From Microcystis sp. T1-4 (GTDB taxonomy: Bacteria > Cyanobacteriota > Cyanobacteriia > Cyanobacteriales > Microcystaceae): a DNA stretch of 20,038 bases. The first letter of the stretch is position 1, and each line of letters starts with the position of its first letter. The position numbers and the translations under genes were made by a program. The stretch lies in assembly GCF_000297435.1 (NCBI RefSeq), contig NZ_CAIP01000190.1, positions 1 to 20,038 of the forward strand. The letters are read 5' to 3'. The notes beneath the pieces are model-generated. The model was not told where the DNA came from, searched no databases, and worked only from the letters and a program-made list of their open reading frames with translations. Positions 3,293 to 20,038 of the stretch are shown here, one piece after another.

Positions 3293-4477
3293 TTAGCGAT
3301 CGACTGACCCCATAATAATATCAATACTGCCTAAAATCGCCATAATATCGGCAACTTTTACCCCTTTGAGGATATGGGGCAGAATTTGAAGATTATTAAA
3401 ATCAGCGGCCCGAATTTTCCAACGCCAAGGGAAGAGTTCATCATTACCGACGATAAAGATACCTAATTCACCTTTACCGCTTTCCAAGCGCACATAATGT
3501 TCACCTTTAGGGATTTTGAAAGTGGGGGCGACTTTTTTGGCGATATATTGATAGTCAAAATCATTCCAAGCTGATTTTTTCCCTTCTGCCATCCGTTTTG
3601 CTTCCAGATTTTCGTAGGGACCACCGGGTAAACCTTTCAGTGCTTGCCGGATAATTTTCACCGATTCGCGCATTTCCCGAATCCGCACCAGATAACGAGC
3701 AAAACAATCGCCGGCGGTTTCCCAATGCACTTCCCAGTCAAAATCGTCGTAACACTCGTAATGGTCAACTTTTCTTAAATCCCATTTCACCCCGGAAGCG
3801 CGCAACATCGGACCAGATAAACCCCAGTTAATCGCTTCGTCTCTGGTAATGCAGCCTATCCCTTCAATACGACGGCGGAAAATCGGGTTATTAGTGATTA
3901 ATTTCTCGTATTCGTCCACTTTGGGGTCAAAATAGTCACAGAAATCCTCGCACTTATCCACCCATCCGTAGGGTAAATCCACCGCCACGCCACCAATACG
4001 GAAATAATTATTATTAATTAACCGCATTCCCGTGGCAGCTTCCCAGAGGTCATAAATCATCTCCCGTTCCCGGAAAATGTAGAAAAAGGGAGTTTGTGCG
4101 CCTACATCCGCCATAAAGGGGCCTAACCAGAGTAAATGGTTAGCGATGCGGTTGAGTTCCAACATAATCACCCGGATATATTGCGCTCGTTTGGGAACGG
4201 CGATATCGGCTAATTTTTCGGGAGCATTGACCGTAATCGCCTCGTTAAACATCCCTGCGGCGTAATCCCAACGACTAACGTAGGGAACGTACATGACATT
4301 GCTGCGATTTTCGGCAATTTTTTCCATGCCCCGATGAAGATAACCGATTACGGGTTCACAGTCAATCACGTCTTCCCCGTCAAGGGTGACGATTAAGCGC
4401 AAAACTCCGTGCATTGACGGGTGATGGGGTCCCATGTTTAAAACCATGGGTTCTGTTCTCGTTTCAATTTTTGCCAT
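3293..4477 (-). CDS. ndhH: NAD(P)H-quinone oxidoreductase (NDH-1) subunit H, NuoD/49-kDa family
   Basis: The sequence from [28 protein letters not shown]...GYLHRGMEK... to ...[13 protein letters not shown] reads as full-length NdhH (394 aa). I moved the start to ATG 4477. The 22 extra codons in the ORF track (MCIVEAF...) are not family-like and overlap a TATAAT box. Confidence 0.95.
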
Positions 4478-16982: not shown

Positions 16983-17004
16983 ATGAAATTACAAGTTCTA
17001 TGAT

Positions 17005-17044
17005 GGGGGTAAGAGTTGTTTAATTGTTGGCAACTTATACCCCC
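17005..17044 (+). terminator. stem-loop downstream of lysC (terminator candidate)
   Basis: GGGGGTAAGAGTTG (17005-17018) pairs with CAACTTATACCCCC (17031-17044) at 12 of 14 positions, with a 12-nt loop, 22 nt after the lysC stop. It is followed by an A-run rather than a T-run. It overlaps the TTG start proposed by the ORF track for the next gene. Confidence 0.35.
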
Positions 17045-17089
17045 AAAAACCCGATAAATAAGTTAACCCTCATCACCCCGATTTTATCT

Positions 17090-17506
17090 ATGGACCCTCT
17101 TACAGGAGCAGCGATCGCAGTTGGTTCGATTATTGCCACTAAAGCGTTAGAGAAAACTGGTGAAAAAGTGGGAGAGAAAGTTTGGCAACAAACAGAAAAA
17201 TTTCTCACTTCCCTGAAACAAGTTTCTCCAGATACTGTCACCGCAATTGAAAAAGCACCCGAACAGCCTTTAGATTATGGACAGGCAATTCTAGAGGTGG
17301 AATCTGTTGCTAAAACCAGTCCCGAATTAAGCCAAATTATAACCGAGTTGGTTAAAGCGATAGAAGCGGAACCTTCCCTTAAAGAATTGGTTAATAATAC
17401 CCTTAAATCTCAATCTCAACAAGCCAGCTTTATCAATAATCAAAAATTACCTGATTCCATAAAGAATCTTTTTCAAGGTAATACATTCATTGGCAATACT
17501 TTCTGA
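17090..17506 (+). CDS. small helical N-terminal domain ORF (138 aa), in frame with the downstream NB-ARC-TPR gene and ended by TGA
   Basis: I chose the ATG at 17090 (MDPLTGAAIAVGSIIATKALEKTGEKVGEKVWQQ...). It lies after the lysC hairpin and is the first ATG. The frame is the same as 17660..20038. The protein ends ...NLFQGNTFIGNTF, then TGA. Confidence 0.6.
   Translation: MDPLTGAAIAVGSIIATKALEKTGEKVGEKVWQQTEKFLTSLKQVSPDTVTAIEKAPEQPLDYGQAILEVESVAKTSPELSQIITELVKAIEAEPSLKELVNNTLKSQSQQASFINNQKLPDSIKNLFQGNTFIGNTF
17504..17506 (+). other. in-frame TGA separating the N-terminal domain from the NB-ARC domain
   Basis: Both 17024/17090 and 17660 are in the same reading frame. The 51 codons at 17507-17659 are open and encode the conserved pre-P-loop segment ...NIPRFVGRDQELIDLKKQL.... 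Confidence 0.9.
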
Positions 17507-17659
17507 CTGCAGCCGCCTGTTAAGGAACAGGTTAAACAACATCCTCACAATTTATCTAATAGTAATATCCCTAGATTTGTTGGTAGGGATCAGGAATTAA
17601 TTGACTTAAAAAAGCAATTACAACAATCCCAAAAGCTTGCTATATCTACCTTAACGGGA

Positions 17660-20038
17660 ATGGGAGGCATAGGTAAAACCGAACTAGCCAGACAGTTTGG
17701 CTGGCAACAATGGCGGGAAAAAGCCTATCCCGGGGGTATATGTTGGTTAAATGTGGCAGAAAGTGACGGCGGTTTTATCGGTACTTCTATTTTAGATTTT
17801 GCGCGGGTACATCTCAAATTAACTTTACCGGATGAGGGAGAATTAGACGTAAAAATTCGTTATTGTTGGCAAAACTGGTTAGCGGGAAATGTCCTAATTA
17901 TCTTTGATGATGTGCGGGATTATCAGCAAATTAGGGATTATTTACCACCGCAAGAAGACAAACGCTTTCAGGTTTTAATTACCACTCGCAAGGAATATTT
18001 ATCAGCGACAATTGCGACTTTTCGGGTAGAAGTATTAAAAGAAAAAGATGCACTTGATTTATTGCGTTCCTACCTTGTAGATAACAGAATTGACACACAA
18101 ATCGAGGCAGCTAAATTATTATGTCAGGATTTGGGTTATTTACCCTTGGCGTTAGAATTGGTGGCAAGGTTGCTGGTACGACGACAGGATTGGGAAATCA
18201 GCAAAATACGGCAGAAATTAGCCGAAAAAGGCTTAGATGAGCCAATCTTAGCCAAAAATCCCAAGTTTCATGGGGAAATGACTGCGGAAAGAGGGTTAAA
18301 AGCTGCCTTTAATCTCAGTTGGGAGGAGTTGCACAGCGAACCAGAAGCGCAAATTTTGGCACTTTACCTCAGTTTATTCGCTCTTGCGCCCTTTCCCAAG
18401 GGGATGATTCTGGATTTATTTCCCGATGAGGATGGGGATACAGTGGAGGAATGGTTAAGCGATAGTTTAGTTCACCTGAGTTTAGTTCAGGATAATCGTG
18501 ATGGTTGGTATGAAATTCATCCCCTGTTGCGTCGCTATTTTCGGGATAAGTTAGAAGCATCACCCCACGCAGAACCAGCAAAACGCCGTTATTGTGGGAT
18601 TATGGCCAAAAAATCGGCAGAAATGCCACAGAATCCCACTGTAGAAATCGTTGAAGAATTTAAACCTTTCCTTCTCCATCTACAAGCATCTGTCGGGGAA
18701 TATCCCCAATATATCGCTGATGAGGATTTATTATGGTCCTATACGGGTTTAGCTTGGTATTATAACGGACAAGGATTGTATGCTATTGCTGAACCTTACT
18801 ATCAAGATTGTTTAACCGCAACTCGAACCCACTTAGGAGACAATCATCCCCATGTGGCAACTTCCCTCAACAATTTAGCACTATTGTACGAATCCCAAGG
18901 CAGGTACACAGAAGCGGAACCTCTCCTTCTAGAAGCTTTAGATTTGAGAAAACGACTCTTAGGAGACAATCATCCCGATGTGGCAACTTCCCTCAACAGT
19001 TTAGCAGCATTGTACAAATCCCAAGGCAGGTACACAGAAGCGGAACCTCTCTATCTAGAAGCATTAGATTTGTATAAACGACTCTTAGGAGACAATCATC
19101 CCCATGTGGCACTTTCCCTCAACAATTTAGCACTATTGTACTATTCTCAAGGCAGGTACACAGAAGCAGAACCTCTCTTTCTAGAAGCATTAGATTTGTA
19201 TAAACGACTCTTAGGAGACAATCATCCCCATGTGGCACTTTCCCTCAACAATTTAGCAGGATTGTACGATTCCCAAGGCAGGTACACAGAAGCAGAACCT
19301 CTCCTTCTAGAAGCATTAGATTTGTATAAACGACTCTTAGGAGACAATCATCCCCATGTGGCAACTTCCCTCAACAATTTAGCAGCATTGTACGATTCTC
19401 AAGGCAGGTACACAGAAGCAGAACCTCTCTTTCTAGAAGCATTAGATTTGTATAAACGACTCTTAGGAGACAATCATCCCCATGTGGCACTTTCCCTCAA
19501 CAATTTAGCAGGATTGTACGATTCCCAAGGCAGGTACACAGAAGCAGAACCTCTCTATCTAGAAGCATTAGATTTGAGAAAACGACTCTTAGGAGACAAT
19601 CATCCCGATGTGGCAACTTCCCTCAACAATTTAGCAAACTTGTACGAATCCCAAGGCAGGTACACAGAAGCGGAACCTCTCCATCTAGAAGCATTAGATT
19701 TGAGAAAACAACTCTTAGGAGACAATCATCCCGATGTGGCACAATCCCTCAACAATTTAGCAGGATTGTACGATTCCCAAGGCAGGTACACAGAAGCGGA
19801 ACCTCTCTATCTAGAAGCATTAGATTTGACAAAACGACTCTTAGGAGACAATCATCCCGATGTGGCACAATCCCTCAACAATTTAGCACTATTGTACAAA
19901 TCCCAAGGCAGGTACACAGAAGCGGAACCTCTTTATTCTGAAGCATTACAAATTTGTGAACAATCATTAGGAATAGCGCATCCAACAACAATGACGGTTC
20001 GAGGAAATTATGCTATCTGCCTTCGTCGTGGGAGATAG
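17660..20038 (+). CDS. STAND NTPase, NB-ARC domain plus TPR repeat sensor (NLR/Avs-like); coding-like sequence extends 5' to 17507
   Basis: Walker A is GMGGIGKTELA, and the ORF-track Met lies inside the P-loop. Walker B is VLIIFDDVRD, the sensor-1/RNBS-B-like motif is QVLITTRKE, and the GLPLA-type motif is LGYLPLALELVARLL. These are followed by a helical linker and TPR_10/12-type 42-aa repeats. The TAG stop lies at the last 3 bases of the window. Confidence 0.85.
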   Translation: MGGIGKTELARQFGWQQWREKAYPGGICWLNVAESDGGFIGTSILDFARVHLKLTLPDEGELDVKIRYCWQNWLAGNVLIIFDDVRDYQQIRDYLPPQEDKRFQVLITTRKEYLSATIATFRVEVLKEKDALDLLRSYLVDNRIDTQIEAAKLLCQDLGYLPLALELVARLLVRRQDWEISKIRQKLAEKGLDEPILAKNPKFHGEMTAERGLKAAFNLSWEELHSEPEAQILALYLSLFALAPFPKGMILDLFPDEDGDTVEEWLSDSLVHLSLVQDNRDGWYEIHPLLRRYFRDKLEASPHAEPAKRRYCGIMAKKSAEMPQNPTVEIVEEFKPFLLHLQASVGEYPQYIADEDLLWSYTGLAWYYNGQGLYAIAEPYYQDCLTATRTHLGDNHPHVATSLNNLALLYESQGRYTEAEPLLLEALDLRKRLLGDNHPDVATSLNSLAALYKSQGRYTEAEPLYLEALDLYKRLLGDNHPHVALSLNNLALLYYSQGRYTEAEPLFLEALDLYKRLLGDNHPHVALSLNNLAGLYDSQGRYTEAEPLLLEALDLYKRLLGDNHPHVATSLNNLAALYDSQGRYTEAEPLFLEALDLYKRLLGDNHPHVALSLNNLAGLYDSQGRYTEAEPLYLEALDLRKRLLGDNHPDVATSLNNLANLYESQGRYTEAEPLHLEALDLRKQLLGDNHPDVAQSLNNLAGLYDSQGRYTEAEPLYLEALDLTKRLLGDNHPDVAQSLNNLALLYKSQGRYTEAEPLYSEALQICEQSLGIAHPTTMTVRGNYAICLRRGR
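18833..19966 (+). repeat. nine tandem 126-bp units encoding 42-aa TPR repeats (LGDNHP.VA.SLNNLA.LY.SQGRYTEAEPL.LEALDL.KRL)
   Basis: Units start at 18833, 18959, 19085, 19211, 19337, 19463, 19589, 19715 and 19841, an exact 126-bp period. Units 1-8 differ at only a handful of nucleotides. Unit 9 diverges in its last ~35 nt. A degenerate capping half-unit follows at 19967-20035. Confidence 0.95.

Follow-up and report, generated by a model that had tools for sequence, protein, structure and literature searches.

A single in-frame TGA separates two open reading frames (ORFs) in a contig of the cyanobacterium Microcystis sp. T1-4 (NZ_CAIP01000190.1, assembly GCF_000297435.1; its 20,038 nucleotides, all of which were analyzed, are here called the window) and raises the question whether this codon is damage, an ordinary gene boundary, or a site of recoding. 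The upstream ORF (here named ORF-N) encodes a small protein, and the downstream ORF encodes an NB-ARC/TPR sensor of the nucleotide-binding leucine-rich repeat (NLR) type. Comparison with related loci indicates that the TGA is the natural, deeply conserved stop codon of ORF-N and did not arise by mutation within the NLR gene. It is also, we consider likely, a site of programmed UGA read-through, which would yield abundant free Bell-motif protein together with a little of a Bell-motif-NLR fusion. This explanation is favored because a conserved UGA, a C at position +4, a spacer of fixed length, a covarying helix, and a selected, start-less, in-frame ORF combine at the junction. A sequence-only reading of this DNA had already listed regulated read-through, giving mostly free N-domain and a little full-length receptor, among its possible explanations; the comparative evidence favors it, and the hairpin singled out there proved to be part of a conserved, covarying element. 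The coding features on which the argument rests are the following.

17090-17506, plus strand: ORF-N, the Bell-domain effector gene; ATG at 17090, 138 sense codons, then TGA at 17504-17506
17432-17503, plus strand: C-terminal G/N/Q-rich motif INNQKLPDSIKNLFQGNTFIGNTF, a putative amyloid signaling sequence resembling bacterial amyloid signaling sequences (BASS), by conservation and composition
17504-17507, plus strand: UGA with C at +4, the proposed recoding site; stop identity and +4 base are kept among relatives
17507-20038, plus strand: NB-ARC and TPR sensor ORF; frame 0 is open for 843 codons up to the TAG at 20036-20038
17507-17659, plus strand: 51 start-less codons (no ATG, GTG or TTG) that encode a linker and the N-terminal part of NB-ARC (FVGRDQELIDLKKQLQQ...)
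17657-17680, plus strand: Walker A motif (P-loop) GMGGIGKT; the first ATG of the sensor ORF (17660) is its M
18832-19948, plus strand: TPR array of 126-bp (42-amino-acid) units, 8.9 copies, 93% identical

Analysis of the reading frames confirmed the layout that had been read from the letters: the two ORFs share one frame and are parted by the single TGA, the 51 codons behind it are open and lack canonical starts, the first ATG lies inside Walker A, and a C directly follows the stop at 17507. The frame-0 sequence directly after the TGA reads LQPPVKEQVKQHPHNLSNS..., and the sensor ORF can be reached in frame solely via the UGA. The Pfam match to NB-ARC (E = 2.6e-19) begins at residue 30 after the stop, 22 residues ahead of the ATG at 17660, so that a protein initiated at this ATG would lose the N-terminal part of the domain; the match to TPR_12 has an E value of 2e-164. 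Highly internally conserved repeats of the kind found in the TPR array have been tied by Dyrka et al. to rapid diversification of NLR sensors. Around the stop, the other reading frames of the window contain neither a concealed NLR start nor a motif. The closest matches of the window's proteins are Microcystis entries with 96 to 99% identity. Two further candidate explanations were rejected: frameshifting, as both other frames are stop-rich downstream, and a reassigned genetic code, as two other genes of the window end in TGA and the Bell homologues all terminate there. On the minus strand at 387-2731, a 322-amino-acid AAA_5-type ATPase overlaps by 19 nucleotides a 462-amino-acid protein without a Pfam family, a two-gene unit that could be another defense-type module.

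If the TGA is a natural stop, the 138-amino-acid product of ORF-N should occur as a protein in its own right. Among 5.8 billion proteins searched, 399 homologues were found; the top 120 have 88 to 179 amino acids, include no NLR fusion, and represent the genera Microcystis, Woronichinia, Nostoc, Calothrix, and Gloeothece. ORF-N begins with MDPLTGAAIAVGSIIATKALEK and combines an N-terminal hydrophobic helix (MDPLTGAAIAVGSII) with a predicted helical bundle and a C-terminal tail predicted to be disordered. Its homologues likewise start with MEP/MDP-L-T-x-AAIA... (e.g., MEPLT or MEPFT) followed by a hydrophobic helix, and share a helical body and a disordered tail that closes in a G/N/Q-rich motif. 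An AlphaFold2 model of ORF-N (predicted local distance difference test score, 72; predicted template modeling score, 0.62) is all-helical, with six helices over residues 3 to 114 and disorder over residues 110 to 138. Comparison of this model with the PDB by Foldseek gave weak matches to Bcl-2 and Rx-CC-like helical bundles, none of them significant (best E = 0.93), and no family was found for ORF-N in Pfam or NCBIfam.

The published family into which ORF-N falls is that of the Bell proteins, putative membrane-targeting cell-death effectors of bacterial NLR amyloid-signaling systems. Bell proteins are short (about 120 to 140 amino acids), and their N terminus is of the 'MEPIS' type, i.e., a hydrophobic helix with an acidic residue at position 2 or 3 (Dyrka et al., 2020); ORF-N fits this description. 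In the supplement of the same study, ARI84452.1 and ARI84451.1 of Microcystis PCC 7806SL appear as Bell and NLR partners that share a BASS5 motif (SQSSGQKTYIKTIEKIVNFSQRDIN and KIVNYAQGDIN, respectively). Two close homologues of ORF-N (P0132 and L001; 83 to 86% identity over about 82% of the query) carry ...SSGQK.YIKTIEKIVNFSQRDIN, one residue off the BASS5 string of ARI84452.1, and because of this shared string we assign ORF-N, on sequence grounds, to the Bell family. One Bell/BASS pair, in E. coli, has been shown to protect against phage by abortive infection (Ibarlosa et al., 2024, bioRxiv 10.1101/2024.11.07.622273). The C-terminal motif of ORF-N itself, ...QKLAD.IKNVFQGNT[FI]IGG[TN]F, is kept in Microcystis, Woronichinia, and Nostoc, and its composition of G/N/Q plus hydrophobic residues resembles that of published BASS motifs. 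The idea that the TGA 'splits' an NLR gene was therefore given up, the codon being the native stop of an independent, widely conserved small gene.

How the sensor gene is joined to the effector gene was examined among relatives. A scan of one genome per GTDB species with a Bell profile gave 80 loci; in each, the Bell ORF was extended to its first stop and then read onward in frame 0, and the presence of the RNA element described below was scored by a covariance model. The element was present in 53 of the 80 loci and absent from 27, and a clean dichotomy of layouts emerged. With the element, every Bell stop is TGA (53/53), while without it TAA dominates (16 loci, next to 5 with TAG and 6 with TGA, 3 of these 6 in truncated ORFs). 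The base after the stop is C in more than 90% of the junctions with the element and mostly A or T in those without. About 46 of the 53 element-bearing loci run in frame 0 for more than 200 codons (up to 1165) or to the contig end, and wherever a P-loop was found it lay in frame 0 with zero stops between. Loci without the element have no in-frame NLR: frame 0 of intact genes meets a stop within at most 27 codons, and the NLR is a separate gene, in another frame or behind stops, that has, in the pairs inspected, a start and a motif copy of its own.

A related Microcystis contig (L001) is a classical pair of the latter kind, in which the Bell gene ends in ...KIVNFSQRDININEQNITM-TAA and is followed, after a 139-nucleotide spacer, by an NLR gene with its own ATG and motif (MDQKTVNYAQRDINIKQQNIY...). 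In another pair (L056), the Bell protein closes with ...KIGQVVMPGGKGKIENQSF* and the NLR reads MSEDSRKFAEKIGQVVMPGGQ. Both show the paired BASS feature, a motif at the effector C terminus and again at the NLR N terminus; the window does not, its NLR having neither a start nor a motif copy, and it is a variant of the paired BASS system and not a canonical pair. The BASS5-type motif is not confined to one layout: L001 and L017 have it in trans, and in L042, L057, and L069 it precedes TGA plus element, so that the element appears to stand in for the second motif copy.

The TGA-element layout occurs in Woronichinia, Nostoc, Calothrix, Tolypothrix, Brasilonema, Scytonema, Stigonema, Moorena, Microcoleus, and other genera; TGA, an open frame 0, and a similar hairpin were seen, for example, in Woronichinia (L010), an uncultured cyanobacterium (L011), and Nostoc sp. 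C110 (L012). In answer to the question whether orthologues have a sense codon or a conserved TGA at this position, none of the 53 element-bearing loci was a sense-codon fusion. A search of 5.8e9 protein clusters with a junction-peptide profile likewise found no sense-codon protein spanning the junction and returned solely Bell-only proteins. The missing sense-codon fusions argue that both products are needed or that the fusion is harmful at full level.

The partners behind the TGA comprise NB-ARC plus TPR, NACHT plus HEAT plus NCC-H, NACHT/nSTAND3, TPR only, and a predicted transmembrane segment with a PsbP-like domain, and the junction thus looks like a portable module. The non-NTPase partners with transmembrane segment and PsbP-like domain (L029, L031, L039, and L040) extend about 212 to 221 amino acids after the TGA; the partner in L046 consists of TPR only, and that in L035 has no recognizable domain. 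A metagenome scan for the element pattern, which required TGAC and so yielded TGA in 44/44 by design, added 44 loci in which the TGA closes a small ORF, usually of about 135 to 160 amino acids. In 41 of these 44, frame 0 stays open over 61 or more codons or until the contig ends. Most of the upstream ORFs encode Bell-like proteins of greater divergence, whose C-terminal motifs are of many kinds, and a few are cut by contig ends. In L119, L121, and L136, the element follows non-Bell-looking ORFs of 309, 152, and 177 amino acids, and the cassette may serve other effector types.

The genomic surroundings of the locus vary. In L002 to L009, a Bell gene and TGA identical to those of the window stand after an aspartate kinase gene (as in the window), after DnaJ plus a 114-amino-acid minus-strand ORF, or after ribA, and the Microcystis Bell locus seems to move or recombine. 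A mobile context is suggested for the cassette of Nostoc sp. C110 (L012, 1185-3599), whose neighbors on an 84-kb record are genes for a phage integrase and for a reverse transcriptase of the group II intron type. In a Microcystis metagenome-assembled genome (L016, 3501-4086), the Bell match is about 118 nucleotides overlong and meets a stop after 43 codons; the element (4027-4086) is undamaged, and the effector gene has probably received a small insertion, possibly a miniature inverted-repeat transposable element.

What distinguishes the two layouts at the nucleotide level is the sequence directly behind the stop. Alignment of 57 junctions (A2) gave the consensus TGA CTN NAG TCG YCY G-NNNGGGAA-C RGR CAAAGTTAAATCCC, and a covariance model (R1) was built from it. 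In the window, the element has the following parts.

17498-17557, plus strand: whole recoding element as matched by R1 (57.2 bits, E = 7e-10)
17507-17514, plus strand: 8-nucleotide spacer CUGCAGCC, family consensus CUNNAGYC; invariant in length, with several positions at least 90% conserved in A2
17515-17532, plus strand: stem-loop with a 5-bp stem, GCCUG (17515-17519) and CAGGU (17528-17532), supported by covariation
17533-17545, plus strand: conserved 3' tail; in its tentative pairing with the loop, 78% of cells are paired in A2

The hairpin noted from the sequence, CCTGTT at 17516-17521 with AACAGG at 17526-17531, exists: RNAfold predicts seven pairs, 17515-17521 with 17526-17532, at -8.1 kcal/mol, i.e., the family stem plus two extra inner pairs, and the loop UUAAGGAA ends in the family-conserved GGAA. 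Support for the stem comes from covariation. In A2, 99.3% of the stem cells are paired, double-sided changes occur in three of the five stem pairs, and pair 19-37 alternates between CG (27), UA (26), and UG (2). Pairing collapsed in every control with slid partners, and RNAalifold independently predicted the same 5-bp stem. Among 90 distinct sequences, the second stem pair is CG in 44, UA in 44, and UG in 2, which makes it 100% paired and gives it the highest mutual information of the region. R1 found one match per element-bearing locus and none elsewhere in 572 kb. An H-type pseudoknot between the loop (AGGA, 17523-17526) and the tail (UCCU, 17542-17545; family GGGA and UCCC) is possible, is complementary in most sequences, and shows apparent compensatory cases in L019, L020, L035, and Microcystis; it is sterically plausible, and we regard it as tentative.

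Synonymous divergence (dS) points in the same direction as the covariation. Over the first 48 codons after the TGA, dS lies 3- to 20-fold below that of the flanking coding sequence in several pairs, e.g., 0.053 versus 0.246 and 0.224 for the window and L015, and 0.028 versus 0.70 and 0.24 for L036 and L037. This indicates that the conservation of the element acts at the RNA level. The locus L051 (3933-3993) is a natural compensatory-indel experiment: it has a 1-nucleotide insertion in the loop, its tail reads TDKVKS and not RTKLNP, and the NLR is again in frame 0 downstream. Other changes in loop length are -3 in Moorena and +3 in L075.

An in-frame UGA with a conserved stem-loop close behind it, the loop containing conserved G residues, is also the general anatomy of the bacterial selenocysteine insertion sequence (SECIS), in which case the UGA would encode selenocysteine and the hairpin would be bound by SelB. 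This is very improbable for the present locus. A search of 17000-17800 against Rfam at permissive thresholds found no family, SECIS included, the only hit being a chance small nucleolar RNA match on the other strand. No homologue has Cys or any other sense codon at the UGA position, and no junction-spanning homologue was found at all. The site is a linker between the amyloid-type motif and the NTPase and not a redox center. According to the literature, the selenocysteine trait is not detected in Cyanobacteria, and none of 61 surveyed cyanobacterial genomes yielded a tRNA with a UCA anticodon (PMC6933170); this evidence is from the literature, the element-bearing genomes themselves not having been scanned.

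Whether the ORF behind the TGA is a working gene was assessed from its substitution pattern. The ratio of nonsynonymous to synonymous substitution rates (dN/dS; Nei-Gojobori, 330 codons of the NTPase region) was 0.12 to 0.36 in all pairs, and 0.15 (dS, 0.22) for the window and L015, within the Microcystis TGA clade. This bears out purifying selection on the NB-ARC part, a check that the sequence-only reading had proposed. For the stretch that begins 8 codons ahead of FVGR and extends to the P-loop, the corresponding ratio of proportions (pN/pS) was 0.23 to 0.78, with pS saturated. A dead or dying gene, in which the TGA would have arisen by nonsense mutation or faulty assembly and the NB-ARC/TPR part would be an untranslated pseudogene, is scarcely credible in light of these values. 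Gene callers do place the NLR start in or just before the P-loop or mark the gene as partial, and a minority of relatives is decayed (L022, with a second stop; L024, L034, L038, and L081, which are short; and L075). These decayed copies show what real pseudogenes of this locus look like; in most relatives the ORF is long and undamaged, and additional disabling mutations in close relatives, which would have spoken for decay, are confined to that minority. In L002, the NLR is cut short and an insertion sequence gene (DDE_Tnp_1) follows. A sequencing error is excluded, since no fewer than 8 other assemblies, with at least 3 different genomic contexts among them, contain the identical 138-amino-acid ORF plus TGA; the configuration also recurs in many genera. 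A recent nonsense mutation is excluded by the family-wide natural TGA, by the dN/dS values, and by ORFs that stay open for up to 1165 codons behind it.

The annotation of this gene class is a matter of its own. Near-identical Microcystis NLR genes (P0002, P0003, P0008, P0010, and P0022; L002 to L006; window 17507-17680) have been given at least four arbitrary starts, namely MPKF/MPRF (at an Ile codon), MDLKK, MSTLTG, and MGGIGKT, and one contig has been annotated in two ways (P0006 versus P0022). The NLR starts of this gene class are systematically misannotated.

A selected ORF might also be translated without any fusion. By termination-reinitiation or noncanonical internal initiation, the structure would hold or reload ribosomes and the NLR would start at a nearby CUG, AUC, or AUU, which would give two unfused proteins; we judge this unlikely. 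The two genes are adjacent on one mRNA, and a scan between ORF-N and the sensor ORF found no promoter or terminator. Directly behind the UGA, the window has CTG, and L027 and L074 have GTG; a conserved Ile codon about 8 codons before FVGR is the PGAP start in some strains. In many loci, however, the codon after the UGA is CUA, CUU, CUC, CCA, or GUA, none of them an initiation codon, and a start codon that overlaps the stop or lies a few nucleotides from it is not a feature of the family, in which the next codon is mostly CUR, also CCA, CUU, CUC, AUC, or GUA, and GUG in 2 loci. No canonical start precedes or lies inside the pre-P-loop segment in the window, L069, and L052; the sole one in L012 is a GTG at codon 50, at the 3' end and two codons before the P-loop, and most loci have none ahead of NB-ARC. 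Occasional starts are not conserved: where L021 has ATG at codon 17, the near-identical L043 has ACA. Reinitiation needs no specific UGA, yet all 53 element-bearing loci have TGA while TAA dominates elsewhere. An NLR made in this way would lack the amyloid motif that is present N-terminally in every inspected two-gene relative, and the compensated +1 loop insertion of L051 kept frame continuity with the UGA.

Several observations weigh against programmed read-through or limit what can be drawn from the data. Its support is comparative throughout. A canonical start occurs soon after the element in L010, L021, L033, and L044, the GTG of L027 and L074 directly follows the TGA, and conserved downstream Ile codons (ATT, ATC, or ATA), sometimes so annotated by PGAP, could in principle act as rare starts. 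The window hairpin taken alone is no better than shuffled sequence (z = -0.67), so its significance comes from comparative covariation alone. Permutation controls of the pseudoknot, in which the downstream segments were exchanged between sequences, were not significant, shuffled values equaling or exceeding the observed one in 1159 of 2000 permutations for all combinations and in 1477 of 5000 for variants. Active maintenance of the frame rests on a few indel events, and the in-frame relation is partly inherited together with a cassette of fixed length, so that the loci do not amount to some 100 independent observations. The published tables of paired BASS motifs do not contain the FQGNT motif, and the amyloid behavior of this motif class is putative.

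With these points taken into account, programmed read-through still accounts best for the junction. UGA is the leakiest of the stop codons, and UGA-CUA and UGA-CUG are frequent contexts among the junctions. A UGA with C at +4 and a structure 8 nucleotides downstream are classic read-through determinants (PMC7026636). Most ribosomes would terminate at the UGA at 17504-17506 and release the 138-amino-acid Bell effector with its C-terminal amyloid-type motif. A minority would insert a residue, most likely Trp from near-cognate tRNA-Trp, and continue in frame to give a Bell-motif-NB-ARC-TPR protein of 982 amino acids (138 + 1 + 843). The signal would consist of the leaky UGA-C, the 8-nucleotide spacer, the 5-bp stem-loop, and possibly the pseudoknot, the spacer placing the RNA structure at the mRNA entry channel while the UGA occupies the A site. 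The predicted fusion junction reads NLFQGNTFIGNTF-X-LQPPVK, where X is the inserted residue, and QHPHNLSNSNIPR and DQELIDLK are predicted peptides upstream of M191.

A fusion would be needed because an amyloid-signaling sensor must carry the motif of its effector, ORF-N being of the Bell/BASS type. In the fusion, the putative amyloid motif would sit between the Bell domain and the NLR, and the sensor would thereby gain both motif and Bell domain, which would spare the second motif copy of the two-gene systems. Read-through would at the same time fix a high ratio of effector to sensor. Upon oligomerization of the NB-ARC/TPR sensor, the clustered motifs may nucleate an amyloid fold that templates the abundant free Bell-motif protein and switches on its membrane-attacking helix, with abortive infection or cell death as the presumed output. 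A more far-reaching and rather doubtful version holds that read-through efficiency is itself the immune input, with the fusion at trace level in healthy cells and rising upon phage infection or translational stress. Limitation of release factor 2 (RF2) or a change in the tRNA pool would then lower termination fidelity and raise the amount of fusion, and the element would be a sensor that arms amyloid-amplified cell death. In Anabaena, deletion of a translational-stress regulator is reported to alter stop-codon read-through (PMC10272220).

Bell/BASS/NLR systems and structure-stimulated read-through are each already known. We found no literature that links Bell/NLR systems with read-through and no description of a conserved structured read-through signal in bacterial cellular (chromosomal) genes; Q-beta is the sole example on bacterial ribosomes in a review of recoding (PMC7026636). 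If true, the present proposal would add conserved, structured, programmed read-through to bacterial chromosomal genes, a class so far documented mainly in viruses and eukaryotes. It would also define a third architecture of bacterial NLR/amyloid immunity beside two-gene pairs and all-in-one fusions, in which one mRNA yields the free effector and an effector-sensor fusion at a set ratio. Many cyanobacterial NLR annotations with arbitrary or partial starts in the assemblies and protein sets examined would be corrected, and Bell proteins that seem to have no motif partner would be accounted for. The model is directly testable and would provide a portable read-through cassette of about 50 nucleotides for cyanobacterial synthetic biology.

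Among known systems, the closest are the Bell/BASS-NLR pairs (Dyrka et al., 2020, bioRxiv 10.1101/2020.01.06.895854), of which Bab/Agp of E. coli is a tested example (Ibarlosa et al., 2024). The window has the same effector family, the BASS5 Bell protein of Microcystis PCC 7806 being a close homologue, and shares the hydrophobic MEP/MDP-type N terminus, the G/N/Q-rich C-terminal motif of about 25 amino acids, and the collinear NB-ARC/TPR or NACHT partner immediately downstream. Unlike in those pairs, the partner in the window has no start or motif copy and lies in frame behind a conserved UGA and RNA structure, a layout that is invisible to the paired-motif screen that defined the BASS families.

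In its recoding anatomy, the junction resembles the gag-pol signal of murine leukemia virus (MuLV), where an 8-nucleotide spacer precedes a pseudoknot (PMC7026636), and alphavirus-type UGA-C sites. Shared are the leaky stop, the 8-nucleotide spacer followed by structure (stable in the viral cases), and the UGA-C or UGA-CUA context, and in both the minor fusion product has the N terminus of the major product, as predicted for the window. Unlike the MuLV signal, that of the window is bacterial and chromosomal, would act on 70S ribosomes with RF2, uses UGA and not UAG, and has a stem of 5 bp and a tentative pseudoknot; there is no sequence similarity. The A1 protein of coliphage Q-beta is a C-terminally extended minor protein made by UGA read-through on bacterial ribosomes and needed beside the major one (PMC7026636). 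Q-beta is, unlike the window, an RNA phage, and the function is unrelated. Its read-through is generally ascribed to stop context and is not known to depend on a conserved, covarying downstream helix.

Bacterial SECIS elements share with the window an in-frame UGA and a stem-loop a few nucleotides downstream inside coding sequence. They differ in that the window has no Rfam match and no Cys homologues and that no selenocysteine machinery is known in cyanobacteria from the literature. The loop of the window also lies nearer to the UGA (13 nucleotides) than in the bacterial SECIS consensus. With the all-in-one NLRs, i.e., rare Bell-NLR, HeLo, or coiled-coil (CC) fusions and the CC-NLR resistosomes of plants, the predicted fusion shares a membrane-targeting helical domain, an NTPase, and repeats. 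Unlike in these, the fusion encoded in the window would be a minor isoform, with the free effector as the major product and the amyloid motif between the domains.

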